Positions 11,084-44,868 of a stretch of DNA of 64,000 bases are shown in pieces. The notes under the pieces were generated by a model. It was not told the DNA's origin and did not search any database. It saw only the letters and a list, made by a program, of their open reading frames with translations. The translations under genes and the position numbers were made by a program. Every line of letters starts with the position of its first letter. The stretch's first letter is position 1. The DNA comes from an uncultured Verrucomicrobiae bacterium. Lineage in GTDB: Bacteria > Verrucomicrobiota > Verrucomicrobiia > Limisphaerales > Palsa-1400. Where the stretch lies: contig OY969763.1 in the NCBI GenBank assembly GCA_963702845.1, positions 5,664,001 to 5,728,000 on the forward strand. Direction: 5' to 3'.

Positions 11084-11099
11084 TCGTCCAAAAGAGTGA
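11084..11099 (-). promoter_or_regulatory. Degenerate copy of the 7-2-7 palindrome (minus strand TCACTCT-TT-TGGACGA)
   Basis: Partial match to consensus; -10-like CAAACT 23 bp downstream (11060-11055), ahead of ATG 11045. Confidence 0.4.
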
Positions 11100-11353
11100 T
11101 GACATTTCCATAGGCCTGTTTTTCGTTGTCGTGTTGCGGGTCGCGAAGTGCCTGAGCGGGCTGACTTTGCCGTGGTGTCGACGGGCTGTCTCCGGGCAAG
11201 GCAGTGCTGCTTCACAATTTGGGTGAAGCGGGACGATGGTATCGGTTTGTGGTCCTGTGCTCATGATTTGGTTCCTGTCATTTTGGTGCGAATTACCGCT
11301 AATTCGGCAGACGATCCGTTTTTTGCGTAAAGGGTGTTCATTTTTTATTTTGG

Positions 11354-11404
11354 TGCAAACCGCTGCAAGCGAGTGCAAACCACTGCAAATGGGCTGCAAA
11401 AACC
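11354..11404. repeat. 10-bp-period tandem array (TGCAA core x5)
   Basis: TGCAA at 11354, 11364, 11374, 11384 and 11395; T-tracts on both sides. Confidence 0.75.
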
Positions 11405-11506
11405 TTTTTTACATTTACGATGAGCGTTATTGCCCAGCGGTTCCGCCGTCGCCGAGGCTATGCGGACGGGTGGATTAGGTCAGGGAGTAGCTACTCGTCA
11501 AAAAAT

Positions 11507-11533
11507 GTAGGGAAAGGAGGGAAGTCAGGGAAA
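11507..11533. repeat. 9-bp-period array (AGGGAA x3)
   Basis: AGGGAA at 11509, 11518 and 11527. Confidence 0.55.
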
Positions 11534-11735
11534 GAAATGGCACTTTTTTGTGACGAAAACGTGCGTTGTTACGCGGTTGGCATGAAAGTTGAGGGGGTGT
11601 TCAACGCGAAGGCGCGAAGAAACAATGGCGCAGAAAGTAAACTCAAAATCAATACGCGAACGGCCTGCGTCCAGCCCAGCTCACAGAACACACAGATCAC
11701 AAAGAGAGATGGGGATTCATAAAATCACGCCAGCC

Positions 11736-13271
11736 TCAGTGGTCTTTTTTCCGATCATTGCTGATGGACTCTGGCGCATCTGTTTCAGTTTCCTTCACTT
11801 CGGTTCGCAACCGGGCAAGTTCTTTTTGTAATTGCTCCTGAATGCTCGCGTAACTTTTCTCGCCGTAAACATTGTTCAGTTCGTTCGGATCTTTCTTTTG
11901 ATCGATTAACGTCCAGTAATTGATGTCCGGTTCGTAAAAGTGGAACAACTTGTAGCGATCCGTCACCACGCCGTAATGCTTGCGGACTTTGTGGGGGCCG
12001 GGGAACTCGTAGTAATGGAAGTAGAAGCTGGTTCGCCAATCGCTGGGTGCCGTTCCGCGCAGGATCGGCATAAGGCTGCGACCTTGCATGTCGTCAGGAA
12101 CTTTGACGCCAGCGGCATCCAACAATGTTTCCGGATAATCGAGCACTGACACCATCGCTTTGCTTCGTGTGCCTGGTTTAATAACGCCGGGCCATCGGAT
12201 CATCAACGGAGTGGTGAGTGATTCCTCGTAAATCCAGCGTTTATCGAACCAGCCGTGTTCGCCGAGGTAAAACCCTTGGTCGGACGAATAAACAACGATG
12301 GTGTTGGTGGCGAGCCCTTCATCGTCCAAATACTTCAACAAACGTCCGACGCTTTCATCGACGGACAAAATCGTCCCAAGATAATCATGCATGTAGCGTT
12401 GGTAACGCCAACGCACGAGATCTTTGCCGGTCAGGTTTTCCGACTGCATTTTGGCATTACGCGGTTCGTAGTAGGCGTCCCAAACTTTCTTTTGTTCCGG
12501 GGTGAGTGAGGGTGGAGAAGTGAACTTTGCATCGCGTGCGGTGAACGTTTTCGCGATGGTCATGTCCTGCTCATGTTCAGCGCGACCGCGGCCTGAGTAA
12601 TCGTCAAACAATGTTTCAGGTTCGGCGAACTTTCTGTCCTTGTTCCAATTGAGATTTTTGAGATTGGGCGACCATTCGCGATGCGGCGCTTTGTGTTGGG
12701 CCATCAACAGGAATGGCTTTGATTTGTCGCGGTTTTTCAGCCATTCGATCGAAAAATCAGTAATGAGATCGGTGACATAGCCCTGGTGTGTCACTTTCTG
12801 TCCGTTCCGAATCATCGGTGGGTTGTAATAAATTCCCTGGTCGGGAAGTATTTCCCAGTGATCGAAGCCGGTCGGATCGGACACGAGGTGCCACTTGCCG
12901 ATGATCGCGGTCTGGTAACCGGCTTTTTGCAGCAGCTTGGGAAAGGTCTGTTGTGCGCCATTGAAGGTGTTGCCGTTATTGCGATAGAAGCCATTCAGAT
13001 GGCTGTATTTGCCGGTCAGAACAGTCGCACGACTCGGGCCGCAAATCGGATTGGGAACGAGACAACGTTCGAACAACATTCCTTCTTTGGCGATTCGATC
13101 GAGGTTGGGAGTTTCGACGAGTTTAAGCGGATTGTTATACGCGCTGATGGCCTGTCGTGTGTGATCATCTGTGAATATGAACAGGATATTCGGGCGCTGC
13201 GCGGCTTGTGTGTTTTGGAATAAAAGCGAGAGGACGATGGCGGCAACAAGCCGGCAGGTTTGCATTCTCAT
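11736..13271 (-). CDS. Formylglycine-dependent sulfatase (N-acetylglucosamine-6-sulfatase-like, DUF4976-type C-terminus)
   Basis: Signal peptide; [49 protein letters not shown]. Confidence 0.9.
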
Positions 13272-13331
13272 AAAGGATCGAATCGAATTTTTAACGATTC
13301 GTATGGTACTCGGAGGCGTTGTTTGCGACTA

Positions 13332-13347
13332 TCACTCAACCGAGTGA
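13332..13347 (-). promoter_or_regulatory. 7-2-7 palindrome TCACTCA-AC-CGAGTGA upstream of the sulfatase
   Basis: Near-perfect inverted heptamers; -10-like TACCAT 23 bp downstream on the minus strand (13308-13303). Confidence 0.7.
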
Positions 13348-13377
13348 TCAGCTTGTTGTATTGGCCGGAAAATCAAC

Positions 13378-14043
13378 TCAAACGAACGGGCGCAACTCTG
13401 CTTTTGCGACGCTCTCCGCATTGCGCAGATAGCGTGTCGCAGCTTCGGTGCGCGAACGGACGTGAAGCTTCTCGTAGATGTGACGCAAATGAGTCCGAAC
13501 AGTATCGAAACTGACGGAGAGCCGGTCGGCAATTTCCTTATTGGCATAGCCCTGGGTCAGCAATTCGAGAATTTCTTCTTCACGGGCGGTTAAGCCGGCG
13601 TCTTTGATAGTCACCGGAGCAGGGCGGCGGAATGATGCGATGACTTTTCGTGCGATTTCGCCGGTCATCGGCGCGCCGCCGTTCAAAACATCCTGAATGG
13701 CGCCGAGGAGTTCGGCTGGAGTCGTGCGCTTGAGCAGATAACCGCTCGCGCCTGATTGCAAGGCGGATAATACGCGATCGTTGTCGGCATGCACGGTCAC
13801 AATCAAAATCTGGACCTGCGGCATGGATTGTTTGAGTCGCGCGGTGCATTCGATGCCCGACATACCCGGCAGATTAATATCCATCAGCACCACGTCCGGG
13901 ACGGCTTGCGGCACCTTTTTAAGAGCATCTTCACCCGATCCGCATGCGCACACACATTGAAATCCTGGAGAGGCGTCAATGAGTTTTGCCCAATTTTCAC
14001 GGATTCCGCGAGTGTCTTCGACAAGGGCAACTTTGATTCTCAT
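13378..14043 (-). CDS. NarL/LuxR-family two-component response regulator
   Basis: REC domain (LVED, DVVLMDINLPGMSG, GYLLK) plus LuxR HTH (LTAREEEILELL..GYANKEIADRL..S..TVRTH..IYEKL). Probable start MRIKV at 14043. Confidence 0.95.
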   Translation of the reverse strand: MRIKVALVEDTRGIRENWAKLIDASPGFQCVCACGSGEDALKKVPQAVPDVVLMDINLPGMSGIECTARLKQSMPQVQILIVTVHADNDRVLSALQSGASGYLLKRTTPAELLGAIQDVLNGGAPMTGEIARKVIASFRRPAPVTIKDAGLTAREEEILELLTQGYANKEIADRLSVSFDTVRTHLRHIYEKLHVRSRTEAATRYLRNAESVAKAELRPFV

Positions 14044-14112
14044 GGTAGGGAGGAATCCGCGTCGTGCGGTTCGGATATGGGTTAGTGTGCGCAATTTGAT
14101 CTTCGGCGAATA

Positions 14113-14128
14113 TCGCTCAAACGGGTGA
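14113..14128 (-). promoter_or_regulatory. 7-2-7 palindrome TCGCTCA-AA-CGGGTGA between kinase stop and regulator start (autoregulation site)
   Basis: Matches consensus; -10-like CACACT 23 bp downstream on the minus strand (14089-14084). Confidence 0.65.
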
Positions 14129-14130
14129 CA

Positions 14131-17127
14131 TTATGATACAGGCGTCTTTTGGCCCACCAACGGTAGTATAAACGAGATGCGTGAGCCTTTTCCCGGCTCA
14201 GTAACGATTTCGGCGCGGCCCTGAATGGTTTCCATTCGCGCCAACATATTTCCCAGGCCGTTACCGCGTTCGGCTTCTTCGGTGAAACCGCATCCGTTAT
14301 CATCGACGGTGACGTTCAGTCGGTTCTCTCGCCACGCTATGCGCAACCAGACTTCGGCGGCGCCGGAATGTTTTACCGCATTGTTCAGGGCTTCCTTGAC
14401 GCTGAGGAAAAGATTGTGCCGCTGTTGCGCCGTTACCGGTATCGATGGCAAATTTTCCATCATGTCAATGCGGCAGCTCACGTTAGCAGCGCGCAGGAAT
14501 TCGTGAGCATGATCGGCAAGGTAACTGGCTAAATCAGGCAAAGAATCGTTCTTCGGGTTAACCGTCCACACAATTTCATCCATCGCCGTGGCGACCTGCC
14601 GCGCTTTTTCGGTGATGCCATCGAGTTGCGAGCGGATTTCAGTCGGCGGCACGTCCCCACCCGCCAATTCGCTCAACAGCATGATTTCAGTAATACCTGA
14701 GCCGAGATCATCGTGAAGATCTTGCGCGATGCGGCGACGCTCTTTCTCCATTGCTTGCTGCATTTCCAGGCGTTCCAGTTTTCGCCGCAATTTCGCGCGT
14801 CCGACAAAATGCGCTCCTGTTCCAACCATGCTGAGGACGAGCAGTCCGACCGTCGTCTGGAACCAGAGGGTTTCATAGTAATGGAGTTTGACGATCAGTG
14901 TCACGGGATTGGCTGTTTCGGTCCAATCATTGGCGCTGCCCGAGCAGATGACGTGGAAACGATAGGTCCCCGGCAGAAGGGCGCCGTAGGTCGCTTTGCG
15001 TTGGGCCCCGGCGTCGACGAACCGATCGTCCTGGCCCTCCAGTTGGTATCTGAACTTGAGTCGTCCCGGTGAATCGGCATCAGCGATCGTATATTGAAAT
15101 TCGACACGCTTCATCCCTGTGTAGATTTCCAGCGGCTTCGTCAAAGAGAATGATTGCTCCGCCTCGTCAACTTTCACTGCTTCAATCAGCACGGGCAACA
15201 AGGGACGATTTCGCAGCAATTCTTTTGGATTGAATGACAGAATGCCGTGTCCCACCGGAAACCAAAGGCGTCCATCCGGTGACTGCGCCGCGGATGGTTG
15301 GCCGCTGCCGACACTCCAATTCTCCACCTCGGACGCCGCGACTTGGATTAAGGGTAATGGTGTGCCACCGCGCCTGTTTGCAATTAAAGCATTTTTCGCG
15401 ACGCCAAACACACCGTCATTGGAACTGAGCCACAGGATTCCATTGGAGTCCTCGATAATCGAATGCACCCAGTCACTTGGGAACCCGTCCGTGCGCGACC
15501 AATAGCGCATGTTACCGCCTTTCATACGGTAAAGGCCTCGGGCCAGGGACCCAATCCAAAGCGCGCCGTCATCATCGCGATAAAGAGTCTCCACAGCCGG
15601 CCGTTGAAACTTCGCCGAGTGCTCGACCTTATCTTTGTGGATCCGGAAAAGACCACCGCTGCGCGTGCCGACCCACAATTCGTTGCGACCCGCGGCGATG
15701 GCGCGCACTTCTTTATCGTGTCCAGGATTTCCTAAAGTGTACGTTTTGATTTCATTACCACGCTTGCGTATCACCGCGCCGATGGTGCCGAACCACAAAG
15801 CGCCCTCCCGGTCCTGGAATAGCGCGGGCACAGGTTGGCCATGGATGACGGATTCCAGTTCTGGCTTCAGCCGATCATTTTCCAGCCTGAACAATCCCGA
15901 CAATGTGCCAAACCAAATTTGATTATCGCGGTCCTCGAAGATTGCCATCACGGTTGCGTTGGAACTACGCGAGGAAATATCGAACCGTGAAAAAACTTCT
16001 TCTTTGAATCGGTAGATACCATTTCCGTCGGTGCCGACCCACACCGTGCCGTCGTGCGCCACGCAGACGGTTTGCGGTACGTTTTCCTGCGTGACGGTTG
16101 GAAGAGATAAAAGGTTAAATAGCCGCGGTTTGATCTGGTGCAAATTGCCCGCGACAGTTCCCGCCCAAACCAAGCCTTCATTATCTTCATAAAAGCAGGA
16201 AACACCGCCGAGTGAACGCGACCTTTTTGGGGTAATCTCCCGCCAACCGGTTCCGGGAATAAGGCAATGAATTGCGCCATTGCGCGTGCCGGCCCACAAC
16301 CTGCCGGCGTGATCTTCGATCATGGCGCCGATGGAGGTTTGCGGACAAGCACCCGATGCATCAACCCATTCAAGGCGAAATTGATTGTTGGTTTCTAGCA
16401 GGCGTCCAACCGTTGTTCCAGCGGTCACCCAAAAACCGCCAAAGCGGCTGGCACAGTGAATGTCAGGTTTAATTTGCTTGTTGATGTCATCACCTAGCTC
16501 GATGACTTGATCTTGCTTAATGATGTAAGCATCCGAAGATCCCGCGACGAGCAGAGTTCCGTGCGGATCGCAAATCAGCCTTCGACGTCCTTTTCCTGCC
16601 GGCACATGCACTGTCGTGATTTTGCCATTCGCCATTCGGGTGATCTCATTGGTGCCGAACAGAGCCCAGATGGTCCCGCTTGAATCGCTGACCAACGATT
16701 TGACAACAGACTCCGGCGCGTTCTCCACCGGTTGAATTTCTGTCAGCCTTGCTTCGGTGCAACGAAATAAGCCTTTGGCAGTGCCGAGCCATAAATTTCC
16801 GTTGGTTTCGGCGAGCAACGTGGTGACTTTGTTGCTCTGGAGCGCAGGAATCGAATCCGCGTTCAGCAGGTTGAAACGCACGCCATCGAATCGCACCAGA
16901 CCTTTTTCAGTCGTCAGCCATAGATAGCCGTTCGCACTTCGCTGCACGTGGCTGATGACTGCGGCGGGAAGGTCATTGCGCCGGTCCCAACTTTTTAATT
17001 CGAACTGCGGCTCAACCGGATTGGCGACCACATCCGTCGGTATGGAAAATGCGACGAAAAGTGCCAATTGCAGCACCGAAAGGACTCTCAGGACAGCAAC
17101 GCGCATTTGTCGAATTATAAATATCAA
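14131..17127 (-). CDS. Sensor histidine kinase: periplasmic two-component regulator propeller repeats, Y_Y_Y domain, TM, HisKA_3 and HATPase_c
   Basis: Repeated D..G.LW.GT..GL motifs; FRYQLEG, YGALLPGTYRF; ERRRIAQDLHDDLG; KEALNNAVKHS, DNGCGF, GNGLGNM. Start at 17127 (TTG) or 17106 (ATG). Confidence 0.93.
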   Translation of the reverse strand: MIFIIRQMRVAVLRVLSVLQLALFVAFSIPTDVVANPVEPQFELKSWDRRNDLPAAVISHVQRSANGYLWLTTEKGLVRFDGVRFNLLNADSIPALQSNKVTTLLAETNGNLWLGTAKGLFRCTEARLTEIQPVENAPESVVKSLVSDSSGTIWALFGTNEITRMANGKITTVHVPAGKGRRRLICDPHGTLLVAGSSDAYIIKQDQVIELGDDINKQIKPDIHCASRFGGFWVTAGTTVGRLLETNNQFRLEWVDASGACPQTSIGAMIEDHAGRLWAGTRNGAIHCLIPGTGWREITPKRSRSLGGVSCFYEDNEGLVWAGTVAGNLHQIKPRLFNLLSLPTVTQENVPQTVCVAHDGTVWVGTDGNGIYRFKEEVFSRFDISSRSSNATVMAIFEDRDNQIWFGTLSGLFRLENDRLKPELESVIHGQPVPALFQDREGALWFGTIGAVIRKRGNEIKTYTLGNPGHDKEVRAIAAGRNELWVGTRSGGLFRIHKDKVEHSAKFQRPAVETLYRDDDGALWIGSLARGLYRMKGGNMRYWSRTDGFPSDWVHSIIEDSNGILWLSSNDGVFGVAKNALIANRRGGTPLPLIQVAASEVENWSVGSGQPSAAQSPDGRLWFPVGHGILSFNPKELLRNRPLLPVLIEAVKVDEAEQSFSLTKPLEIYTGMKRVEFQYTIADADSPGRLKFRYQLEGQDDRFVDAGAQRKATYGALLPGTYRFHVICSGSANDWTETANPVTLIVKLHYYETLWFQTTVGLLVLSMVGTGAHFVGRAKLRRKLERLEMQQAMEKERRRIAQDLHDDLGSGITEIMLLSELAGGDVPPTEIRSQLDGITEKARQVATAMDEIVWTVNPKNDSLPDLASYLADHAHEFLRAANVSCRIDMMENLPSIPVTAQQRHNLFLSVKEALNNAVKHSGAAEVWLRIAWRENRLNVTVDDNGCGFTEEAERGNGLGNMLARMETIQGRAEIVTEPGKGSRISFILPLVGQKTPVS

Positions 17128-17163
17128 TAGCTCGGCTTACAAGCTTCGCAGCGTCATGGTCGG

Positions 17164-17179
17164 TCACTCAAATGAGCGA
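17164..17179 (+). promoter_or_regulatory. 7-2-7 palindrome TCACTCA-AA-TGAGCGA in the divergent kinase / protein B spacer
   Basis: Best match to consensus; -10-like CACGCT at 17204-17209. Confidence 0.72.
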
Positions 17180-17245
17180 TGGACGCTGCTCGCGGCACTG
17201 TGACACGCTGGTACGTCCAGTTACCACACCGCCAAGCCAACAAAC

Positions 17246-20200
17246 ATGAGAACCCCTGCCTTCGTTGTGTTGACCGGATTGGTTTTTGGGCTTGTGTGCG
17301 GCTATCCACTCGCTCGAGCCGGTGCGGCAGGAGTTGGCGTTGAAGTGGAGTTTGCGGACAGCGCCACCGGTTACTCGCTGCAACCAGATGAAATTGTGGC
17401 TCATCCGCATCGCAACGGGGCAATTGAGCAACGATTTGGCCGGGCTCACACTGGTGCTGATGGTCGTGCAAAGATGCAATTGGAACGCGGTCGGCACACG
17501 GTCAGCGCCAGTATACCTTCCTATCATCCGCTCAGCGGCGAAGTGCAGGTCCGGGAGAATTTTCCCTACAAAGTTCGTTTCCTGCTGGATCCGATCGAGA
17601 AACCGCGTGAGCTGCAGGCTGACAATATCGCGGCCCGTCACCGCGACGATGCGACGCTCTTCCAGGGATTTGTCGTGTCAGATGAGACCGGGCGGCCGTT
17701 GCGTGGAGTTCGGATCAAATCGACGCCGAGTGGTGTGAGTGCTGTCACCGACGAGCGCGGTTTCTACGAGATATACGTGCCGTTGCAGGCACCAGCCAGC
17801 TTGGTTGTGGACAAAGGAGGTTACAAGGTTGAAGAGCGGCAGTACCTGGAACTCTCGCCGCGCGGGGATTGGACCTACAACTTCCGGTTGGAGCGAGGCA
17901 ATGGGAAGCAAACACTCGATGAACGCAGCCGGTTGCGCCAAGCCATCGAGCAAGACCCCACAGAGGAAGTGATTGCGCCCAAGGCGACATTTACTCAAAC
18001 GATGACACGGCTAGTCACTCCCAAATCCACGCTTCCCGCCAATGCGACCATTCGAGTTCCTCGGAACATTCGGGTGGAAGACGGGACCAATCTTTATTAC
18101 GTGACGATGAATTTCTATGAGAAGCACGTGTTGCCGCATGAATGGATTGCCTCATGGAACACCAACAGCTTGAATGCGGGCGCGGTGCCCGTGCGATGTT
18201 ACGCCATTGCGCGTATCAATGCCCGCGCGCCGGACAGCGATTTTGATATTTGCGGTGATAGCAATTGTCAGAACTTCAAGGCCAACGTTTCCTCCAGTTC
18301 GACTGATGGAGCGGTGGACTATACCGCTGGCTATGTAGTTATTAACGGTAGCGGTGATATTCCTAGCACCGAGTACTCGGCGGAGAACAACAGCCTTGGA
18401 AAACCGTGCGGAGACGGTTTTGCTGCGCCAAGCAGCGGGTGTCTTTACGATCCGATTTGTGCGGGACACGATCGGTCGGGCCACGGTAGGGGCATGTGTC
18501 AGCGCGGGACGCAGCGGTGGGGTTCGGGGGGCAACGGGTATCCGGTACGCGATTGGCTTTGGATGGTTGAACATTACTATCCCACCCTCACGCTCGTCAA
18601 AGGAGCCGAACTGGTCATCGGTGATGACGTGAAATCTACTTCCAGCGATTGCAGCGTGCGCGCTTGTGCGGGCGGGGGAATCGATAACGGAACTTTATGC
18701 GCGTTGATCACAAGCAAAGCCTCTGGCCAAACCGGCGTGATTATCGGCGGACCCATACTCGTGACCAACGACAGCAAAGGCTTCACGTGGTATCAAGTGC
18801 GTTGGAACGACGCTAGTTCGACGACGGGTTGGTCCTGCGAAAGCTATCTGGATCGAGTGGTATCGGCACCCACAGCGCCGACCGGTTTGACGGCGACGGC
18901 CAGTGGGTCGAGCCAAATAAACCTGAGTTGGACGGACAGCAGCAGCATCGAAGCAGGATTCTACGTCGAGAGAGCGCCCGCCTCGAGTGGGCCTTGGTTA
19001 CAACTCGCAACGCTTGTGGCGAACGCGGTGAGTTACTCGGACAAAAACCTTTATGCCAGCAGCACCTGGTTTTACAGGGTTCGCAGCTACAACTCGGCGG
19101 GGAACAGCAGCTATAGTAGTGTGGCGAGCGCGACTACTCCCAACAACGTCGCGCCAACCCTGGCTGCAATTCAAAATCGCGTCGTCGCTCCGGGAATACT
19201 GATCACGTTCACGAACACCGCGACCGCGCCCGACACCGTAAAATCGATCACGGATTTTGAAGCGTTTCAGAGCGAAACCGGAAACGGTGCGGTGTTGTTC
19301 GATACGCCAAACACGTCCAGCAGCACGAGCAACTTTCTGAACAATGCGCCGGAAATGGACATTGCCGTAATTACCGACACGCATCCCACCGGAGGACAAT
19401 CTTCGGGCAATGTGCTGATGCTGATTTGTCAGTTTACCAATGCGAACAATCCCTGGCTGAGACTAACGACGGCTGGCACGAGCTACTTTCCCGATGCGGT
19501 GATCGATATTACACGCAAGCTGCGCTTTGATATGTATGCGGACCAGTCGGTGCAGGTGGCGGTAGGATGTCGCGAGACTACGACGGCGGTTGGAACGGCA
19601 ATCGGAATGGATGGCGGGACTAGCGGCGCGATCGAATGGGCCGGAGTGACCAATGTGGCTGGAACCGCCCCGATGCCGACACGAACGATTACGCCGAACA
19701 CGTGGACAACGGTGACATTTGATTTTGCCAACGAACCGATCCGCAGTTTTTCTGGTGGCAACGGCGTGTTATCGACGACATCCGGTTTGGGTGTTCTCGA
19801 ACATCTCGCCATTGTTCCGCAGAATGGTACGAACACGTACACCTTTTACGTCGACAACTTCGCGGTGTTGTATCCTCGAACATTTACCTACAGCTTGGGT
19901 GCAGGTGCGCCGTCTGGAGCCACGCTTGATGCAAACACGGGTATTTTCTCCTGGACCCCCTCTCAAGCGCAATCGCCCAGCACGAACAACATTGCGGTAA
20001 TCGTCACCGACAACAGTTCCCCACCTTTGCGCACGACTAATACCTTCACGGTGACAGTCTCGCAGTCTTCGCCGACCGTTATAGTTACCCAACCACAGAA
20101 CGCCACTGCGAATGTCGGCTCCGACGCGGTGTTTAGCGTTGAAGCGAGTGGAACATCGCTGAAATATCAATGGCTGTTCAACGCGACGACTGTCCTGGCG

Positions 20201-24553: not shown

Positions 24554-24569
24554 TCACTCATCTGAGCGA
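24554..24569 (+). promoter_or_regulatory. 7-2-7 palindrome TCACTCA-TC-TGAGCGA upstream of protein C
   Basis: Identical half-sites to 17164, with the same downstream TGGAC; -10-like GACAAT at 24593-24598. Confidence 0.72.
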
Positions 24570-24679: not shown

Positions 24680-27600
24680 ATGACCACCCAACTATCGCAT
24701 CTCTCGAAAACTTTTACCGCCAGTGCATTTGCCCTGATTCGCCAAAGGACCTGCCAGGTTGTAACCTTGGGGTTGCTACTGTCGGCATTGTCAGCTGCTG
24801 CACAACCGGCCATTAGCACGCAACCGCTCAACCGCACCAACAACATCAGCGATCTCGCACAGTTTAGCGTAGTTGCCACGGGCGCCGCACCGGTGACTTA
24901 CCAATGGCGACGTAATGGTGCGAATATCAACGGCGCGACTGGGAGTGCTCTCAGTCTATTGGTCACTAACATCGGTAATGCTGGCACCTACAGCGTTGTG
25001 GTAACGGACAGCACAGCTCTTACCACTACCAGTTCTGATGCTGTTCTTTCCGTATTCTTCGCTGACCGAACAAGGTTTACGCACTGGAACTTTAACAGCA
25101 CTACATCGGACAATTCTGTCACTACCGGTGTCAGCAGTCCGGCAATCGGCTCCGGCGTGCTCACCGTTGTTGGCACGGGCATTACCGCCAATGGATTCAA
25201 CACAGGTTCCGCTTCAGACCCTAATTTGACGGATAATTCAAGCCGTCGTTGGAACAATTATGCTTCAACCGTGCCCAACAAAACCGGCGGCGCGAAATAC
25301 GCGGTTAGCACAGCGGGCTTCCAGAATGTTGCCGTCAGCGGTGAACTGTGGCTGGCGCAGCGCAGCTCCGCCTATTGGCGCGGGCAATACAGCATTGACG
25401 GCGGCACGAATTGGATTGATCGACTAGTCATTAGTAGGCACAGCGTGTCGCTTCAGAACTTCTTTTATTTTTCCGATGATTTGACTGGCGTCGACGGCGT
25501 TGCGGACAACTCAAACTTTGTTTACCAGATCGTTGGTGAATACGAAAGCACCGCCACTGGTAGCGGAGCCGCTGCTTACGTCTCTTGCGATCCCGCTTCG
25601 ACTTTCAACCCCACCAGTTCTCTTTTCGGGTGGGACCTTTTCAGCGTGTTCGGCACCGCAATTTCTCAACAGCCCGCGATCACTCAGCAACCGCGAAGTC
25701 ACACTAATTATTTAAACACAACCGGCGGATTCACCGTGAAAGCGACCGGTGGGAATCTCTCCTACCTGTGGTATTTCAACAATTCTCCAATTAATTCTGG
25801 CACTGGTTCGGATTTGGTTATAACCAACGTCCAATATTCCAATGCCGGCACCTATCACGTCGTCGTTTCCAATACCGCCGGAACTGTCACCAGCGATGAT
25901 GCGATCCTGACGGTCGAAGACGTCGTGCTCCCGCAAGGTGATCGTTTTTGGTCCGCCGATGGCGTAAACGCGGGTGTTAGCGGCGGCAATTGGGACACTA
26001 ATACACCGAATCGCTGGGGACAAAATATCGCTGGTCCGTTCAATCTCCAGTGGAACAACACCCGCCTCGATAACGCGATATTTCCTCCCGGTTCCGGCGT
26101 GATCACCAACTCGACGGGCGTAGCCGTGAACACCATCACGCTTACCAACGCTCCGAGTGCAGCCTACGCTTTTAACGGTGCTGGCAAAATCAGTTTTCTC
26201 GGGCCCGACTCTTCCATCTACGTCGCCGGCGCAAACAACTCGAACGCCAGCAATCTTCTGTCCAGCACCTGCGAATTCGCCGGTTCGATCATTACCAAGA
26301 ATGGAGGCGGCCGCTTGCATCTCGATAATACCAACAGCAACATCGGCCGCTGGGTTGTTAATCAGGGTTCAATTACCGGCAGCGCCGCGGCAAATCTTTT
26401 CGGGATTGCTCCCTCGCAATCGCTTTCAAATTTCATCACGCTCGATGGCGGTGGATTTGGATTCATCGCTTCCTCCGCGATGTCTCTGGGCACCAATCGC
26501 GGTATTTACCTTGGTCTGAACGGTGGCCAACTCGGCAATCAGGGCACTGGCGGCATCATCACAATTGACGCGCCGATCACCGGCCCCGGTTCACTGAACT
26601 TCCCCGGCAATACAGAATGGCCCAGCCAACTCCAGGGCGATAATTGCATCTTCATCGTAAGCAACACGAACAACAATTATCAAGGGATCACGCGGATTGC
26701 GACCGCCGAAGTCCGTCTCGGCGCCAATCAGGTGTTTCCAGCGACCACCACGCTGATGGTCAGCAATCTCTCTCTCAATGGCCGACTCAATTTGAACGGC
26801 TTCAATCAGACGGTGGCCACAGTGATTCTTGATAGCACCAGCGGCAACGCTCGTATCATTGACACTGTCGGAACAGGCAGTCTCACTGCAGCGCAATTCG
26901 ATTTGCGCCGTAGCGCTACGGCTACAAATGTGAGCGCGATTCTTGCCGGTCCCGGTACACTCACCAAAACGACTAGCGGCAATATCACTCTCGCCGCCCC
27001 CAACACCTACAGCGGCGATACATTCCTGCAGGCCGGAACGCTCACGCTCAACGCTTCGGGGCGTTTCGGCAATGGCGTCGGCACTCTCCACCTGCAAGGC
27101 GCTACGCTCACCGTTCCAGAATCACGGACCGATGCGACCGCTATTATCAATCCCACTTCCCTCGAGGCCGAGACGCTCGTGCAGGGGACCGCGAACGCCA
27201 CGAATAATATCCAGTTTATCCACGGCGGGACGTGGACGATGGGTGGAGGCGTTCTATACGTGTATAACCCGAATACGAACGGCTTCTTGTTTCAGGTTGC
27301 TTTAACGAACACGTTCAATTTTTCGCTTCCGATCGATATTGGGAACGGGTGCCACCTCGTTTCTTACAATCCTGCTGGAAGCGATCAAACCTTTAGCGGC
27401 GGCCTTTCCGGAGCGGGCGTATTCAGACGCGCTGTTTCGACAGGCAGCGGCGGACGCACCATCTTTAACGGGGATAATACCTACAGCGGCGGGACCATAG
27501 TTAGTTCTGGCACGTTGCTTGCGAATAACCAAAGCGGCGCCAGTGCGACAGGCAGTGGTACGGTCACTGTCACCGCAGCTGGTGTTCTCGGCGGAACAGG

Positions 27601-28525
27601 CACAATCAGCGGCCCAGTCGCTGTTACCAACGGCGGCAATCTTTTGGCTGCTGCTGCTGGCGGAGTTTTAACCTTGCAAGGCGGCCTTGATATGAGCGGC
27701 AGCGGAACAAACACATGGGAACTGGCCGCCTTGCAAGATAATAGCACCGGCATTGCCGGAACTGGTTTCGGCCAAATTGTCCTGACTGCTGGCGAATTAC
27801 AGTTGGGCGGCAGCTCTGTTCTGTCGCTGAAATTCTCCGGCGGCACTGCGCCAGATGGCTCCGTGCCGTTCTGGCAATCCACCCACCAGTGGAAAATCAT
27901 CAGTCTGATTGGCGGCCTGAACACAGCCAACGCCTCGTTTGCTTCTATTGCCAATGGAAGCTACAGCGCGGGTAACTTCTCAACTGCTGTTGATGGAAGT
28001 GGCAACATCATTCTCACGTTTACGGCGTCAGTTCAGTCGTCACCCACCATTACGAGTCACCCGCAAAGCCGGACCAATGTTGCTGGAACAACGGCGTCTT
28101 TCACGGTTGCTGCGAATGGCTCGCAGCCTCTCACGTATGCTTGGTTCCGCAGTACGGCTCCGTTTACGCCCATTCCGGGGGCGACAAACACCACCTTTAC
28201 TTTGGCGAACGTGCAGGCGGCAAGTGCGGGCAGTTACTTTGCTCGTGCTTACAATGGTCTCGGAAATGATACAAGCCAGCTTGCATCGCTTACAGTTGTG
28301 CCGTCACCATCGCTTCAACCCTTGTCCGGAGCCGGAACCGCGAATGTCGTGCTGAGTTGGAATACAGTCGCGGGCAACCAATACCAGGTGCAATACAATA
28401 CGAATCTCTCCACCGCTAACTGGATTCCGGTGACCACATTTGTGGGCGCTGGCGGCAACGTTTCGGTGACCAATCATCCACCCGTTGGTGATCCGCAGCG
28501 TTACTTTCGCGTGATTATCTGGTAA
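24680..28525 (+). CDS. Secreted protein C (~1280 aa): Ig-like domains, shared ~190-aa beta domain, autotransporter-associated beta-strand repeats, C-terminal RYFR-type domain
   Basis: Signal peptide ending ALSAAAQ; NTNNNYQGITRIATAEVRLGANQV (paralogous to the start of protein A); GPGTLTKTTSGNITLAAPNTYSGDT and GDNTYSGGTIVSSGTL repeats; ends QRYFRVIIW. Start at 24668 (TTG) or 24680 (ATG). Confidence 0.85.
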   Translation: MTTQLSHLSKTFTASAFALIRQRTCQVVTLGLLLSALSAAAQPAISTQPLNRTNNISDLAQFSVVATGAAPVTYQWRRNGANINGATGSALSLLVTNIGNAGTYSVVVTDSTALTTTSSDAVLSVFFADRTRFTHWNFNSTTSDNSVTTGVSSPAIGSGVLTVVGTGITANGFNTGSASDPNLTDNSSRRWNNYASTVPNKTGGAKYAVSTAGFQNVAVSGELWLAQRSSAYWRGQYSIDGGTNWIDRLVISRHSVSLQNFFYFSDDLTGVDGVADNSNFVYQIVGEYESTATGSGAAAYVSCDPASTFNPTSSLFGWDLFSVFGTAISQQPAITQQPRSHTNYLNTTGGFTVKATGGNLSYLWYFNNSPINSGTGSDLVITNVQYSNAGTYHVVVSNTAGTVTSDDAILTVEDVVLPQGDRFWSADGVNAGVSGGNWDTNTPNRWGQNIAGPFNLQWNNTRLDNAIFPPGSGVITNSTGVAVNTITLTNAPSAAYAFNGAGKISFLGPDSSIYVAGANNSNASNLLSSTCEFAGSIITKNGGGRLHLDNTNSNIGRWVVNQGSITGSAAANLFGIAPSQSLSNFITLDGGGFGFIASSAMSLGTNRGIYLGLNGGQLGNQGTGGIITIDAPITGPGSLNFPGNTEWPSQLQGDNCIFIVSNTNNNYQGITRIATAEVRLGANQVFPATTTLMVSNLSLNGRLNLNGFNQTVATVILDSTSGNARIIDTVGTGSLTAAQFDLRRSATATNVSAILAGPGTLTKTTSGNITLAAPNTYSGDTFLQAGTLTLNASGRFGNGVGTLHLQGATLTVPESRTDATAIINPTSLEAETLVQGTANATNNIQFIHGGTWTMGGGVLYVYNPNTNGFLFQVALTNTFNFSLPIDIGNGCHLVSYNPAGSDQTFSGGLSGAGVFRRAVSTGSGGRTIFNGDNTYSGGTIVSSGTLLANNQSGASATGSGTVTVTAAGVLGGTGTISGPVAVTNGGNLLAAAAGGVLTLQGGLDMSGSGTNTWELAALQDNSTGIAGTGFGQIVLTAGELQLGGSSVLSLKFSGGTAPDGSVPFWQSTHQWKIISLIGGLNTANASFASIANGSYSAGNFSTAVDGSGNIILTFTASVQSSPTITSHPQSRTNVAGTTASFTVAANGSQPLTYAWFRSTAPFTPIPGATNTTFTLANVQAASAGSYFARAYNGLGNDTSQLASLTVVPSPSLQPLSGAGTANVVLSWNTVAGNQYQVQYNTNLSTANWIPVTTFVGAGGNVSVTNHPPVGDPQRYFRVIIW

Positions 28526-28568
28526 CATCGTCTGCAACGATTGAGCGGGCCTATGCAGGCCAAACAAC

Positions 28569-31500
28569 ATGAGAATCCGTGCATTTGTTGCCTTGACGGC
28601 CCTGACGGTCAGTCTTGGGCTGCCTGTTTCAAATGTGCGGGCCGGTGAGACGCCACAGGAAGTCGATCTCCAGTTCTTCGATAGCGCGACTGGTTACGCG
28701 CTGCAGCCCGATGAAATCGTGGCTCAGCCACATCGCGACGGCGCAACGAGACAACGTTTCAATCGTGCCCACATGCGTGCGGATGGGCATGCAAAAGTTG
28801 CGTTGGAACACGGCCGCCACACGATCAGCGCGAATTTGTCGGCATATCATCCGCTCAGTGGCGAACTGCAAGTGCGCGACGCTTTTCCCTACAAAGTCCG
28901 TTTTCTCCTGGACCCAATTGAGAAACCAATCGAGCTTCAACCGGACAACATCACCGTGCGTCAACGCGATGACGCCACGTTGTTCCAGGGTTTCATTGTT
29001 TCCGACGATACCGGCGAGCCATTGCGCGAAGTCCGCATCAAATCAGAACCCAGCGGTGTAAAAACCGTCACCGACGCTCGCGGCTTTTATCAACTTTATA
29101 TCCCGCTGCAATCGCCGGCAAATCTCGTTGTCGAAAAACCCGGCTATCGCACCGAAGAACGGCAACAACTCGAACTCTCCCCGCGAGGAGACTGGACCTT
29201 CAACTTCCGGCTGGAACGCGGCACTGGAAAGCAAACCCTCGATGAGCGCAGCCCCTTGCGTTTGGCCGTCGAACAAGATCCGCCCACAGAAACAACGCAA
29301 ACATCACCAGCGTCGACAGTCGCGCCGCAGCCCTTGTTAATTACGCCAAAGATTCCGACCATTGGCACAAACGCAACACTTCGCGTTCCGCGCAACATCC
29401 GCGTCCAGGACGACACGAATATTTATTACGTGACCATGAACTTTTATGAGAAGCACGTGTTGCCGCATGAGTGGATCGCGTCATGGAACAGCAACGCTTT
29501 GAACGCCGGCTCGGTACCGGTGCGTTGTTACGCCATCGCGCGGGTCAATGCTCGCGCGCCGGACAGCGATTTCGATATCTGCGGCAACAGCGATTGCCAG
29601 AACTTCAAAGTCAACGTGTCATCCACTTCGACCGATCGCGCGGTTGATTACACCTCCGGCTATGTGGTGGTTAATTCGAGCGGCAACGTTCCCAGCACCG
29701 AGTATTCCGCTGAGAACAACAGCCTTGGAAAACCGTGCGGCGACGGCTTCGCCGCTCCAACTTCCGGATGTCTCTACGACCCCATCTGCGCTGGTCACGA
29801 TCGCTCTGGCCACGGGCGCGGCATGTGCCAGCGTGGAACACAACGATGGGGCGACGGCAACAATGGCTATCCCGTCCGCGATTGGATTTGGATGGTCAAT
29901 CATTACTACTCGACGCTTACGCTGGTCAAAGGCAGCGAACTCATCATCGGCGACAACGTTGAATCGACTTCGGGCGATTGCAACGTGCGCGCGTGTGCCG
30001 GGGGAGGCATCGGCAGCGGCGTGTCGTGTCCATTGCTCACCAGCAAATCGGCGGGCCAAACCGGCGTCATCATCGGCGGTCCCATCCTCGTGACGAACGA
30101 CACCAAAGGCTTCACGTGGTTTCAAGTGCGATGGAACGATGCGAATTCAACGACGGGTTGGTCCTGCGAAAATTATCTTGATCGCATCGTGTCACTTCCG
30201 GTCACACCTGCGAGTTTCACCGCGACGGCGATCAGCGGTAGCCAAATTAATCTAAGTTGGATCGACAGTAGCAATATCGAGGCGGGCTTTTATATCGAGC
30301 GCGCGCCGTCGTCCACCGGCCCATGGCTGGAAATCGCGACGATTTCAGCAAGCGTGACGACTTACTCCGATCGGAACCTATATCCAGGCAGCACATGGTA
30401 TTACCGCATGCGCAGCTACAACTCCTCTGGAAATAGCAGCTACACTGCTGCCGTCAGCGCGACCATTCCCAATAGTGTTGCCCCAACATTGGCCGCTGTT
30501 CAAAACCGCGCCGTTGCACCTAACACCTTGATTACATTTACGAACACAGCGACAGCGCCCGACAACGTCAAACTCATCACCGATTTCGCAGCATTCCAAA
30601 GCGAAACGGGCAACGGCGCAATTTTATTCGAAACGCCAAACACTTCGACCAGCACCTCAACCTTTCTGAACGACGTGCCGGAGATGGATCTCTCCGTCAC
30701 CACCGATACTCATCCGAACGGCGGCCAAGCGTCCGGCAACGTGCTTATGGTCCAATGCCAGTTCACCAATTCCAACAATGCATGGTTGAGGCTGACGACT
30801 GCTGGACCAACATGGTTCGCTGACCCGGTGATTGATCTGGCCAAAAAAATCCGCTTTGACATGTACTCCGACCTGTCGGTTCAGGTTGCCTTGGGCTGTC
30901 GTGAAACAACAACCCCTGTCGGAACCGCAATCGGTTCCGATGGCGGCACGAGCGGCGCGATTGAATGGGTCGGTGTCACTGGTGTTTCTGGCACTGCACC
31001 GGTCTGTACCCGAACTGTTACCTCTAACACTTGGACGACCCTGACATTCGACTTCACCAACGAACCGATCCGCAATTTCTCGGGCGGCAATGGCGTCTTA
31101 TCAACCGCATCCGGCCTGGGCGTGCTCGAACATCTGGCCATCGTTCCGAAAAGCGGGAACAACATCTACACGTTCTACCTCGACAACTTCGCTGTTCTCA
31201 CGCCACGCGTTTTCACCTATAGCTTTGGAACGGGCGCGCCGACCAACGCGACACTTAATGCCAGCACCGGCATTTTTTCATGGATGCCAACTGCTGCGCA
31301 AAGTCCGAGCACGAACCAAATTTCAATTATCGTTACCGACAACAGCATCCCAGCGTTGCGTGCGACCAATTCTTTCGTCGTAACCGTTGGCCAATCTTTG
31401 GCGAACAGTCCTCCTCTACTCAACCCGATTGATAACCGCACTGTCTATGCAGGGACGACAGTCGTCGTTACCAACTCGGCCTACGACCCGAATCCATCCG

Positions 31501-32501
31501 ACACGCTGACCTTCAGTCTCGGCACCGGCGCGCCGCCAACCGCCACCCTCAATTCCAGCACGGGCGTATTCAGTTGGACGACGACGACTGCCGACACGAA
31601 TTCTGTTCACAACATCACCATAAAGGTCACCGACAACGGTTCACCGCCGATGAGCGCCAGTGGAAGTTTTTCCGTGACAGTGCTTCCTCCTCCGCCTGCG
31701 AACAGCTCGCCACTGCTTTATCCGATCGACAACCAATCCATCCATGCAGGCGCGACATTGACGTTTACGAACCTTGCCTACGACGCCGACACCAACGACG
31801 TTCTGACTTTCAGCCTTGATCCTGGCGCTCCATCCGGCGCGACCATTCATCCGGTGACCGGCGTCTTTTCGTGGACGCCTCCCGATTCTGAAAGTAATAC
31901 TGTCAAATCTGTCACCGTCCGCGTCAGCGACAATGGTCAGCCGTCCAAAAGCGCTTCCAGCACATTTTCGGTCACGGTTTTGCCTCGTTTGCCGAACAAT
32001 CCGCCATCGCTATCGCCCGTGACGAACCTGACCGTCCACGCGGGAACCAGTATTGTGTTCACGAATTACGCGACCGATCCAGATCCTGATGATTTCCTTG
32101 GGTTCAGCCTGGGCGACGGCGCGCCCGAAGATGCACAAATCGATATTGTGACCGGCGTGTTTACGTGGACACCGACGGACGCTCATGCAAACACAACCAA
32201 CCACATCACGATACAAGTCACCGACGACGGCGAGCCGCCGCTGACCGCTTTCGCCCCGTTTGACATCATTGTCCGACCACGCCCCACCTTCACCACCGTG
32301 CAAGTTTCTGGGAATTCCGTTTTGCTGTCGTGGTCGAGCATTTCGAACAGAACCTATGACGTGTGGTTCAATAACGACCTTTCAGGATCGCAATGGCAAC
32401 CACTCGGCTCAGTGGTCGCGACAAACTCGCTGAGCACCATCACCGATTCAACGTTTCAAGGTGCGGTCCAACGCTTTTACCGCCTCCAGTTGGAACAATA
32501 A
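28569..32501 (+). CDS. Secreted protein D (1310 aa): paralog of protein B N-terminal half (SpoIID/LytB, SH3b, FN3, CBM-like) followed by cadherin/He_PIG-like repeats and an RFYR C-terminal domain
   Basis: Colinear with B for ~940 aa; repeated N.PP.L..I.N..V.AG......A.D.D...LTFSL..GAP..A.I...TGVFSWTP; ends QRFYRLQLEQ. Confidence 0.87.
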   Translation: MRIRAFVALTALTVSLGLPVSNVRAGETPQEVDLQFFDSATGYALQPDEIVAQPHRDGATRQRFNRAHMRADGHAKVALEHGRHTISANLSAYHPLSGELQVRDAFPYKVRFLLDPIEKPIELQPDNITVRQRDDATLFQGFIVSDDTGEPLREVRIKSEPSGVKTVTDARGFYQLYIPLQSPANLVVEKPGYRTEERQQLELSPRGDWTFNFRLERGTGKQTLDERSPLRLAVEQDPPTETTQTSPASTVAPQPLLITPKIPTIGTNATLRVPRNIRVQDDTNIYYVTMNFYEKHVLPHEWIASWNSNALNAGSVPVRCYAIARVNARAPDSDFDICGNSDCQNFKVNVSSTSTDRAVDYTSGYVVVNSSGNVPSTEYSAENNSLGKPCGDGFAAPTSGCLYDPICAGHDRSGHGRGMCQRGTQRWGDGNNGYPVRDWIWMVNHYYSTLTLVKGSELIIGDNVESTSGDCNVRACAGGGIGSGVSCPLLTSKSAGQTGVIIGGPILVTNDTKGFTWFQVRWNDANSTTGWSCENYLDRIVSLPVTPASFTATAISGSQINLSWIDSSNIEAGFYIERAPSSTGPWLEIATISASVTTYSDRNLYPGSTWYYRMRSYNSSGNSSYTAAVSATIPNSVAPTLAAVQNRAVAPNTLITFTNTATAPDNVKLITDFAAFQSETGNGAILFETPNTSTSTSTFLNDVPEMDLSVTTDTHPNGGQASGNVLMVQCQFTNSNNAWLRLTTAGPTWFADPVIDLAKKIRFDMYSDLSVQVALGCRETTTPVGTAIGSDGGTSGAIEWVGVTGVSGTAPVCTRTVTSNTWTTLTFDFTNEPIRNFSGGNGVLSTASGLGVLEHLAIVPKSGNNIYTFYLDNFAVLTPRVFTYSFGTGAPTNATLNASTGIFSWMPTAAQSPSTNQISIIVTDNSIPALRATNSFVVTVGQSLANSPPLLNPIDNRTVYAGTTVVVTNSAYDPNPSDTLTFSLGTGAPPTATLNSSTGVFSWTTTTADTNSVHNITIKVTDNGSPPMSASGSFSVTVLPPPPANSSPLLYPIDNQSIHAGATLTFTNLAYDADTNDVLTFSLDPGAPSGATIHPVTGVFSWTPPDSESNTVKSVTVRVSDNGQPSKSASSTFSVTVLPRLPNNPPSLSPVTNLTVHAGTSIVFTNYATDPDPDDFLGFSLGDGAPEDAQIDIVTGVFTWTPTDAHANTTNHITIQVTDDGEPPLTAFAPFDIIVRPRPTFTTVQVSGNSVLLSWSSISNRTYDVWFNNDLSGSQWQPLGSVVATNSLSTITDSTFQGAVQRFYRLQLEQ

Positions 32502-32532
32502 ACGCCCGATCTTCCTAGAGGTGCGGTTGTTT

Positions 32533-32615
32533 AGAGGGGCGAGGCTGCGCCGTCTCAGCCTTTGCAACACTTCGCACCGCTCCTGTAAAAGACTTAGCAG
32601 GAGCTTCGCCCTACC
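32533..32615. repeat. Degenerate REP/REPIN-like inverted repeat
   Basis: AGGGGCGAGGCTGCGCC ... GCAGGAGCTTCGCCCTACC arms between convergent genes; GTAG-type end on the minus strand. Confidence 0.5.
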
Positions 32616-32769
32616 GAAAAATAGTAACCACCACTTGTAATCACACCCTCTTCCCGGGCGGTGTGCGCAACTTCTCGCAATGCGCTAAGCGGAAGACAAG
32701 CGCGTCTCACTGTTGAGATGAAATAAGGAAAGGAGAATGTTTTTTCGACGAACCAAGTCGAGGCGAAAC

Positions 32770-33687
32770 CTACCTCATCCAAGTCGGAAAGAAGGTTGGC
32801 GGCGTGGTTTTATCGGTGTCGAAGCTCATGTGCCACTGGAGCTTCCAAAGATCTCGTGCACGGTAACGACGTGTCGAACCGTCGGCGAACACCATATTGA
32901 CGCCATTTCCGTGCCTAGCCATGGCAAAGTTCGCTATCTCATGAGTAGCGTCCAAGTACTCGCCGTTGAACTGCGGTGGTTGAGTAGCAATTGTAGGATC
33001 CCATTGCGGTGCGCCGCCGCGCCACATCGAATCCGCCATGAGTGGAATCAACGGCGGTTTCGTCAGGGCGCTGGTGGTGCGCCAAAAACTCGCCGCTGGC
33101 CAACTATAGAGGGTGCTGACCATTCCGGATTTTTTCGCATAATTGAACGTCCACACATTGGCTCCGTAACTAGCGAGGGCCTTGCGATGTTGCGGGTCCT
33201 GCGGATCGATGTACGGCTTATTGTCGGTTCCAATTTCGAAGCTGGTGGTTGGTCCTCCCTGAGTTTGCGCGTTCGCGCTTCCCCACGCAACTCGCGTCTC
33301 CGGTTGGCCAGCCGGTGCTCCGTTCTGCATCTCGCCAGCCGTCGGACAAAGTAACAAGAATGGTTTTCTCCCAACATAATTACTTAAACACCCCACCCAC
33401 TGAGCGCGTTCCGGGAAACTCGCCTGGTCCCCATCGCAGTATGATCCTCTGTTATCTTCAGTATAATATGACCACATCAGTCCCCACTGGTGCAGATTCG
33501 ACATACATTGTGCGGAGTATGCTTTTTGCTTCGCCCTTGCCAGTGCCGGGAGAAGCATCGACGCAAGGATTGCGATAATGGCGATGACCACGAGCAATTC
33601 AATTAAAGTAAATCCACGCCCGCGCTCGCAATTTCCTTTGGGTTGTTCGGTCTGCATAGGTGCTTGTGCCCTCAACTTCAGGGCCAT
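32770..33687 (-). CDS. Prepilin-type N-terminal cleavage/methylation protein with H-X9-DG motif (DUF1559-like pseudopilin)
   Basis: [45 protein letters not shown]. Confidence 0.93.
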
Positions 33688-33742
33688 TTAGCCAATGTGC
33701 TTTTAGTCTTGAAAATATTACGTAAATGACTCAGCGCGTATA

Positions 33743-33758
33743 TCGCTCGTTTGAGCGA
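33743..33758 (-). promoter_or_regulatory. 7-2-7 palindrome TCGCTCG-TT-TGAGCGA upstream of the pseudopilin
   Basis: Inverted heptamers flanked by A...T; -10-like TAATAT 22 bp downstream on the minus strand (33720-33715). Confidence 0.7.
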
Positions 33759-44865: not shown

Positions 44866-44868
44866 TAA

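Follow-up and report, generated by a model that had tools for sequence, protein, structure and literature searches.

Hybrid two-component systems in the polysaccharide utilization loci (PULs) of Bacteroides carry a fused AraC-type output. At the yeaR promoter of Escherichia coli, the response regulator NarL of the NarX/NarL pair occupies a single site of inverted heptamers (7-2-7) centred at −43.5, reads it through Lys188, Val189 and Lys192 and recruits RNA polymerase through the C-terminal domain of the alpha subunit (alphaCTD) (PMC10853779). In this work, we analyse a 64,000-nucleotide stretch (the window) from an uncultured Verrucomicrobiae bacterium (assembly GCA_963702845.1, a 6.03-Mb genome called G000 below; the window is C1:5664001-5728000, where C1 is contig OY969763.1), in which a NarL/FixJ-family regulator and a separate sensor kinase lie among genes for surface proteins and secreted enzymes that are preceded by a 16-base palindrome (consensus TCRCTCA-N2-TGAGYGA, 7-2-7; the box). 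We think it likely that the regulator encoded at 13378-14043 has this box as its operator and would thereby switch on its own gene alongside a block of genes whose products, surface proteins and secreted enzymes, possibly digest bacterial cell-wall material; for the regulatory part alone (regulator, box and activation) our confidence is higher still.

The resemblance to NarX/NarL at yeaR includes a NarL/FixJ receiver with a LuxR-type helix-turn-helix (HTH), a HisKA_3 kinase and a single inverted-heptamer site just upstream of the −35 element with a predicted centre at −43.5, and the equivalent of NarL Lys174 is retained (PMC10853779). The differences lie in the heptamer (TCRCTCA here, TAACCAA-TA-AATGGTA for the yeaR site), in the reading residues (Arg183, Thr184 and Arg187 at the positions of Lys188, Val189 and Lys192), in an Asp at the position of Arg178, in the propeller/Y_Y_Y sensor and in the local glycan-enzyme targets, as opposed to nitrate respiration. 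NarL or NarP proper was rejected, as the NCBIfam score of 149.6 falls below the cut-off of 250, the residues are Arg/Thr/Arg and the sensor is a propeller protein. With the Bacteroides PUL hybrid systems (Protein Data Bank (PDB) 4A2L, 3V9F and 3VA6) the locus shares the Reg_prop and Y_Y_Y sensor (E value of 1e-39 to 4A2L), encoded next to glycan-enzyme and sulfatase genes whose expression it would induce, but kinase and regulator are separate proteins here, with HisKA_3 and a LuxR-type HTH. A Bacteroides-type hybrid or PUL was likewise rejected: no single chain joins kinase, receiver and AraC-type output, and the Pfam matches of the window include no SusC/SusD pair, with prepilin-type and PATR/immunoglobulin (Ig) proteins instead.

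The box, its promoters and the regulator

The six 16-mers listed by the initial annotation are all present in the window with the letters and positions given there. They are intergenic, lie 38-110 bp ahead of an ATG and are followed 22-24 bp downstream, in the direction of the gene, by an NAnnnT hexamer. Its statement that no intergenic copy occurs past 34 kb is also borne out, as the five matches with at most three mismatches in that part all fall inside called genes. A further exact box lies 988 bp left of the window start, ahead of a giant Ig/MBG gene.

Genome-wide, exact matches to the consensus number five, compared to 0, 0 and 0 in three order-5 Markov simulations, and three of the five fall within this locus; matches with one mismatch number 5 (3-6 simulated) and those with two mismatches 85 (45-64 simulated). 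In its exact form the motif exceeds Markov chance, and it recurs in other families. A matrix that combines the box with −35 and −10 elements gave eight matches above 25 bits at seven places, with none in each of four simulations; because its 24 training sites, taken from other genomes, were chosen with the consensus of this genome, the box part of this test is not independent, unlike the promoter part and the gene context. Two sites score lower: the box at 14113 is borderline at 23.2 bits (0-1 simulated matches at such a score) and that at 11084 is at background level at 17.6 bits (1-4 per simulated genome). Both are backed by conservation in the sequences compared, since a box lies directly upstream of the regulator at the same position as 14113 in the genome G182 and the loci L104 and L105, and NAGPA homologs in two other records, G182 and L104, carry upstream boxes, which supports the weak 11084 site. 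Weak matrix matches at C1:3803232, 1059987 and 5010061 lie within called genes and were taken as background.

Each of the six boxes directly abuts a −35-like hexamer that starts with T and is followed, after 16-18 bp, by a −10 element in the direction of the gene. Given a 17-bp spacer and start sites predicted from these hexamers, the box would span −51 to −36 with its centre at −43.5. The start sites predicted in this way lie near 11048, 13296, 14077 and 33708 on the minus strand and near 17216 and 24605 on the plus strand. The proposal of a class II activator site near −42 therefore stands as far as an activating position is concerned, whereas the predicted centre is of the yeaR type and not canonical class II. 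The promoter part of the matrix scores positive towards the gene and negative the opposite way at nine of ten sites tested (for example, 10.6 compared to −6.5 at 11084 and 6.0 compared to −4.8 at 17164), and the box at 33743 is positive both ways. On the plus side of the latter, TGGGGT-17-TATACT faces roughly 700 bp without a called gene before tRNA-Lys, where it could drive a small RNA as a divergent promoter; this gap past 33758 has no Rfam match and no meaningful similarity to the matching gap in G182. The leader of the NAGPA transcript is predicted to be about 3 nt.

The regulator has a receiver with a phospho-acceptor Asp and a LuxR/GerE HTH, and is encoded beside a HisKA_3 kinase, which places the pair in the NarL/FixJ two-component family. 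Its relatives occur mostly in Verrucomicrobiota records, many labelled Limisphaerales. G000 encodes about 11 NarL-type regulators, of which only two belong to the subfamily of the local regulator, and the second has a different recognition helix.

The initial annotation had both kinase and regulator autoregulated. This is supported for the regulator, where the box at 14113 is the predicted autoactivation promoter, and probably does not hold for the kinase, which has a TTGTAA-17-TATAAT promoter of its own. As the shared box at 17164 shows no promoter elements facing the kinase, and as in G182 the kinase gene is unboxed, it is probable that the kinase lies outside the regulon and that only the regulator autoactivates. 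The kinase promoter is the best of five matches in 9.5 kb, and since shuffles yield 5.4 matches, its weight rests on its position. With the 17164 box situated some 64 bp upstream of the predicted start of the kinase, a modest effect on the kinase is possible. With its ATG 7 nt past the −10 element (window 17106-17119, minus strand), the kinase is predicted to have a near-leaderless transcript.

In the mechanism that we propose, the kinase, expressed from its own promoter, would sense a glycan fragment outside the cell through its propeller/Y_Y_Y domain and, as is known for the family, would phosphorylate Asp55 of the regulator. A regulator dimer would then place a recognition helix (Arg183, Thr184 and Arg187) in each TCRCTCA half-site and, judging from the geometry, recruit RNA polymerase at the adjoining poor −35 element as NarL does at yeaR, activating weak sigma70-type promoters from the predicted centre at −43.5. 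The box between kinase and regulator would provide positive feedback on the regulator alone.

Box and recognition helix across genomes

The exact 17-mer TCRCTCANNTGAGYGAT was followed through 401 genomes of the order and found in 12, seven with one site and five with at least two. The five multi-site genomes (G000, G182, G127, G055 and G250) all have a regulator with the helix SFDTVRTHL[RK]H, and all belong to a group of nine genomes in which a regulator match reaches E ≤ 1e-84; the regulators of the other four are 62-67% identical, with different helices and no site. For five of the seven single-site genomes, which were examined, the best regulator match, where there is one, is 52-60% identical, and other helices occur in the five loci that were returned. 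Across 194 regulator loci, five of the seven same-helix regulators have a site (at most one mismatch) in the locus and four have a box directly upstream, compared to none of 187 other-helix regulators with an upstream box (at most two mismatches); the sole other match at the level of the locus belongs to a second regulator in the G250 locus. No box cluster was found outside G000 in 301 genomes of the class. Footprinting relied on other families, as the family of this genome yielded no orthologs (E ≤ 1e-88, 30 genomes). A site beside a regulator in G015 resembled conservation; the regulator fetched from that genome has another helix. From this co-occurrence of motif and regulator, the box is most likely the target of the neighbouring regulator.

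The regulator has up to 17 close paralogs per genome, which can be compared clade by clade where at least 60 bp of non-kinase DNA lies upstream (108 of the 194 loci). A generic score for any 7-2-7 palindrome with adjacent −35 and −10 elements exceeds 10 upstream of 21 of these 108 regulators, compared to 2.1% of shuffles, and the excess is confined to arrangements with the same dyad centre. Box identity climbs with helix identity, from 5.2 to 11.8 of 14, and receiver identity climbs too; among 362 distant pairs, which are not independent, the correlation between box and helix is weak (rho of 0.14). Of 19 classes of helix, all four with Val or Ile at the NarL-189 position have halves that start with TA, and of the 12 with Thr, Ser or Ala there, 8 have TC at the start of both halves (two are mixed and two other), a pattern that suggests, and does not prove, a recognition code. 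An unmasked palindrome search returned kinase-end coding motifs in several clades, and these motifs were discarded. Subfamily regulators of Bacteroidota (L062 and L054) also have a 7-2-7 box abutting −35 (TCACAC-N4-GGGTGA-like).

Target genes and their possible substrate

Table 1 Features of the window, with boxes described in the direction of the gene that they precede.
Feature	Position	Strand	Details
Giant PATR/MBG/Ig protein	1..6823, start ~830 bp left of window	+	Exact box at −988; frameshift near 4.3 kb
Second sulfatase	6919..8715	+	No own box; likely co-transcribed with giant gene
Calcineurin-like phosphoesterase	8721..9722	-	51 bp behind NAGPA and likely co-transcribed with it; box directly ahead in G182
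NAGPA-family phosphodiester glycosidase	9774..11045	-	Weak box 11084
Weak box, 3 mismatches	11084..11099	-	TAGACC-17-CAAACT behind; 38 bp to NAGPA ATG (11045); 17.6 bits
Sulfatase (11.7-kb)	11736..13271	-	Closest to BT4656 GlcNAc-6-sulfatase, 548 bits; Cys-type motif, Asp343/Arg345/His427 triad kept
Box, 1 mismatch	13332..13347	-	TAGTCG-17-TACCAT behind; 60 bp to GlcNAc-6-sulfatase-like ATG (13271); 28.6 bits
NarL/FixJ-family response regulator	13378..14043	-	Receiver with Asp55, GerE HTH; recognition helix SFDTVRTHLRH
Box, 2 mismatches	14113..14128	-	TATTCG-17-CACACT behind; between kinase and regulator; 69 bp to regulator ATG (14043); 23.2 bits
Sensor kinase	14131..17106	-	Reg_prop beta-propellers, Y_Y_Y, transmembrane segment, HisKA_3, HATPase_c
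Kinase promoter, near-consensus sigma70-type	17114..17142	-	TTGTAA-17-TATAAT, 7 nt ahead of kinase ATG
Exact box	17164..17179	+	TGGACG-18-CACGCT behind; 66 bp to protein B ATG (17246); 32.9 bits
Protein B, 2431 aa	17246..24541	+	Signal peptide, CarboxypepD_reg, SpoIID-fold domain (Glu299), fn3, possible carbohydrate-binding domain, Ig repeats
Exact box	24554..24569	+	TGGACA-17-GACAAT behind; 110 bp to C-D operon ATG (24680); 30.7 bits
Protein C, Ig and PATR repeat surface protein	24680..28525	+	No catalytic domain found
Protein D, 1310 aa, second SpoIID-fold protein	28569..32501	+	Domain 85% identical to that of B; 43 bp behind C; no own box
Prepilin-type N-methylation / H-X9-DG protein	32770..33687	-	Box 33743
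Box, 1 mismatch	33743..33758	-	TATACG-16-TAATAT behind; 55 bp to prepilin-type ATG (33687); 32.4 and 31.8 bits
tRNA-Lys(CTT)	34463..34538	+	Right end of boxed block

Upstream boxes support the proposed targets B, C-D, the sulfatase, the pseudopilin and the phosphodiester glycosidase, the last through its weak site (Table 1). These members stand and the set is larger than claimed, as it takes in the giant Ig/MBG protein, probably the sulfatase behind it, and distant paralogs: a box at C1:3102813 precedes the only other SpoIID-like gene of G000, and the single further match to the pilin (59%) lies behind a weaker box at C1:4320126. The top score of the genome is a perfect box at C1:4212973 (L003:7973, minus strand), followed by a gene for a 107-aa PurA-family nucleic-acid-binding protein and two outer-membrane beta-barrel genes. 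A weak variant, TACCCCAATTGAGTGA at C1:4318103 (minus strand), has a good −35 element and lies 2 kb from the boxed pilin paralog, facing away from it. Frameshifts split the giant Ig/MBG gene (window 4274-4410) and the third SpoIID-like gene (C1 near 3101400) and are either assembly errors or real breaks.

Outside this genome, the fullest counterpart is found in G182, of another family, whose regulator is 84%, sensor 50% and kinase domain 69% identical. It has 12 boxes, 11 of them on the contig of the regulator. Homologs of the phosphoesterase (64%), the pilin (49%), C (49%) and D (53%) are boxed there, as are the regulator, sulfatases, a NAGPA protein and a giant Ig protein. Behind C comes an unboxed homolog of B (50%), a boxed run of three genes ends with the ortholog of the 11.7-kb sulfatase (79%), an Amidase_2 gene lies 64 bp behind the ortholog of D, and the sole off-island box precedes NamZ. 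On L104, a 1.5-kb metagenome contig, there are three boxes, one before a NAGPA homolog. The boxes of G055, G127 and G250 precede genes for sulfatases, prepilin-type and PATR proteins.

The 200-residue domain shared by B and D has a confident predicted fold (predicted local distance difference test score of 94.6), and its only significant Foldseek matches are SleC and SpoIID structures (E values of 2e-8 to 1e-4). A profile built from 68 homologs also recovers SpoIID, which phmmer with the domain alone did not recover in the PDB; the SpoIID Pfam model scores above its cut-off and TIGR02669 below (48.6 compared to 83.3). Glu299 aligns with the catalytic E101 of Clostridioides difficile SpoIID, and of the zinc ligands of that enzyme (H134, C140, H145 and C146) the equivalents of C140 and C146 are kept, with Asn at that of H145. 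Like SpoIID/SpoIIP of C. difficile and Bacillus, SleC and the chlamydial SpoIID (PMC6221140, PMC6635528), the domain combines this fold with the catalytic Glu and a GHG.G motif, and an amidase is genetically linked in G182. It differs in being compact, with 13-15% identity, and in being borne on very long secreted Ig-repeat proteins of a non-sporulating organism, where it is apparently inducible and its activity putative. Among the 401 genomes of the order, 31 encode it, including all five with the local type of regulator. Residues 660-880 of B (window 19223-19885) form an unnamed domain that is also present in D; its Atlas neighbours include the carbohydrate-binding families SGBP_B_XBD and CBM30 (scores of 0.92-0.94), which we treat as a lead. 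At their C-termini, C (28525) and D (32501) have domains that resemble each other and finish in an R(F/Y)(F/Y)R-type tail, possibly a sorting signal; the loose pattern occurs in 45 of 4782 called proteins.

The other enzymes bear on the substrate. Wall polymers are linked through a GlcNAc-1-phosphodiester (GlcNAc, N-acetylglucosamine). Some surface proteins join NAGPA to a calcineurin-like phosphoesterase, a type of enzyme that includes PhoD, which breaks down teichoic acid (PMC11488536). The 11.7-kb sulfatase, whose closest solved relative is BT4656, has the Asp/Arg/His triad by which S1_11-type sulfatases recognize GlcNAc-6S (bioRxiv 10.1101/2021.07.23.453482, PMC10154612), a triad that also serves L-galactose in some S1_11 members. 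SpoIID cleaves glycan strands once an amidase has stripped the peptides (PMC6221140, PMC6635528), and NamZ is an exo-muramidase of peptidoglycan salvage in Bacillus subtilis (PMC8054146). The boxed NamZ of G182 and an order of amidase, glycan cleavage and exo-glycosidase fit the NamZ/NagZ/AmiE salvage of B. subtilis, from which the present case differs in that the single NamZ of G000 is unboxed and control would lie with a putative two-component activator. Taken together, the SpoIID-fold lyases, NAGPA, phosphoesterase and GlcNAc-6-sulfatase-like enzyme among the targets in G000 and G182, with the amidase and NamZ of G182, suggest cell-wall scavenging; peptidoglycan with attached anionic polymers is our leading candidate for the substrate, held tentatively and at a little under an even chance.

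Beyond the boxed block, the PSCyt2/PSD1 and DUF1501 genes at window 39994-45110 look fragmented, with intact pairs at 48955-57735. An Rfam scan of the window found two tRNAs and no other RNA. Guanine-cytosine content is flat over the whole window (52-57%), so that composition gives no sign of a recent transfer, even though a tRNA is present and the distribution is patchy.

Alternative explanations and meaning

Several observations count against the account given above. On the regulatory side, NarL Arg178, which contacts alphaCTD, is Asp in the local regulator; the regulators of G127, G055 and G250, three of the seven with the same helix, lack an upstream box, so that autoregulation is not universal; G127 and G055 belong to one genus, which reduces the genomes to about four lineages; and the regulator search scored seven candidates per genome, so that carriers may be missed. 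On the side of the targets, the PurA-family gene behind C1:4212973 has no glycan link, sensor identity falls to 35% in G055, in G250 a LamG domain takes the place of the sensor, and the SpoIID genes of G055, G127 and G250 are unboxed. The same is true of the two amidase homologs, NamZ, the GHL10 homolog and the second NAGPA of G000; one of five NamZ genes of G182 is boxed, and among 46 long SpoIID-like homologs a single one is fused to an amidase.

Chance resemblance, or remnants of upstream DNA that was duplicated, almost certainly does not account for the sites: given the paralogy of B, D and the distant SpoIID gene, some sites were perhaps copied along, and 11084 is at background level, but the five exact matches against none simulated, the boxes ahead of unrelated genes with unrelated flanks and the conservation of the box in other families refute this for five of the six sites. 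It is improbable, though less so, that another transcription factor reads the box or that the local regulator represses through it. The roughly 11 NarL-type regulators of the genome, the three same-helix regulators elsewhere without an upstream box and the second regulator within the G250 locus would allow for another reader; yet the box follows the helix over 401 genomes and 194 loci, a fixed dyad position recurs through the paralog family, and the box lies just upstream of a poor −35 element and not over it, which is the activating position of NarL.

The remaining alternatives keep regulator and box and change the substrate. A sulfated or phosphorylated GlcNAc glycan other than the bacterial wall (heparan-like or an extracellular polysaccharide), with the SpoIID-fold proteins acting on a peptide-free GlcNAc polymer or recruited late, is a serious competitor, if one that we doubt. 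It accords with the kinds of protein that recur behind boxes from genome to genome (sulfatases, prepilin-type and PATR proteins), the GlcNAc-6S triad kept in the 11.7-kb sulfatase, the two GH89 alpha-GlcNAcases and GH35 in the G250 locus, and the best solved relative of the sensor, which among few structures is 4A2L, which we take to be the Bacteroides heparin sensor BT4663. It leaves unexplained the two or three boxed SpoIID-fold genes in G000 and G182 and the amidase and NamZ of G182, and because the G250 sensor differs, the enzymes there say little on the signal here. An unlikely alternative is that the hydrolases act on the envelope of the cell itself and not on foreign material, remodelling or recycling it in a biofilm or under stress, in line with characterized SpoIID proteins, which target the cell's own wall (PMC6635528, PMC6221140), and with the role of NamZ in turnover in B. 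subtilis (PMC8054146); a domain borne on Ig stalks of 1300-2400 residues, with type IX secretion tails on 8 of 46 homologs and a presence in merely 31 of the 401 genomes, is unlike a housekeeping enzyme.

Returning to wall digestion, the proposal of a single surface degradation system fits G000 and G182, whereas targets and sensor domain differ in G055, G127 and G250. In G250 (L226:10400-13164), a same-helix regulator and box are paired with a LamG-sensor kinase amid GH89, GH35 and sulfatase genes, an apparent case of an input swapped on a retained output. The regulator-box module is therefore portable, and the cell-wall reading, nearly an even call that leans slightly against, is restricted to the version in G000 and G182. 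A wider picture, plausible but doubtful, is that some Limisphaerales-type Verrucomicrobiota eat the walls of other bacteria with an inducible, surface-displayed system, in which stalked SpoIID-fold lyases, an amidase, NamZ, a GlcNAc-phosphodiester glycosidase and a phosphoesterase detaching wall polymers, and sulfatases would answer to one wall-fragment sensor, and in which each helix variant of the regulator family would read its own box at the same −43.5 position, as a natural recognition code that pairs Val or Ile at the NarL-189 position with half-sites starting in TA and Thr, Ser or Ala with those starting in TC.

No account of this regulator, of the motif or of the set of enzymes turned up in a literature search, which most subscription papers lay outside. 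The regulon is real and undescribed but of an ordinary kind, and the logic of its switch is textbook. Gene regulation is barely described in this abundant and mostly uncultured group, for which we now propose a regulator, its operator and about ten target promoters. If the cell-wall reading is true, the enzymes and a sensor for the turnover of bacterial remains would be named, and the SpoIID fold would be in use outside sporulation and division. The paralog family, in turn, would allow the targets, and thus the substrates, of many orphan sensors to be assigned from sequence.

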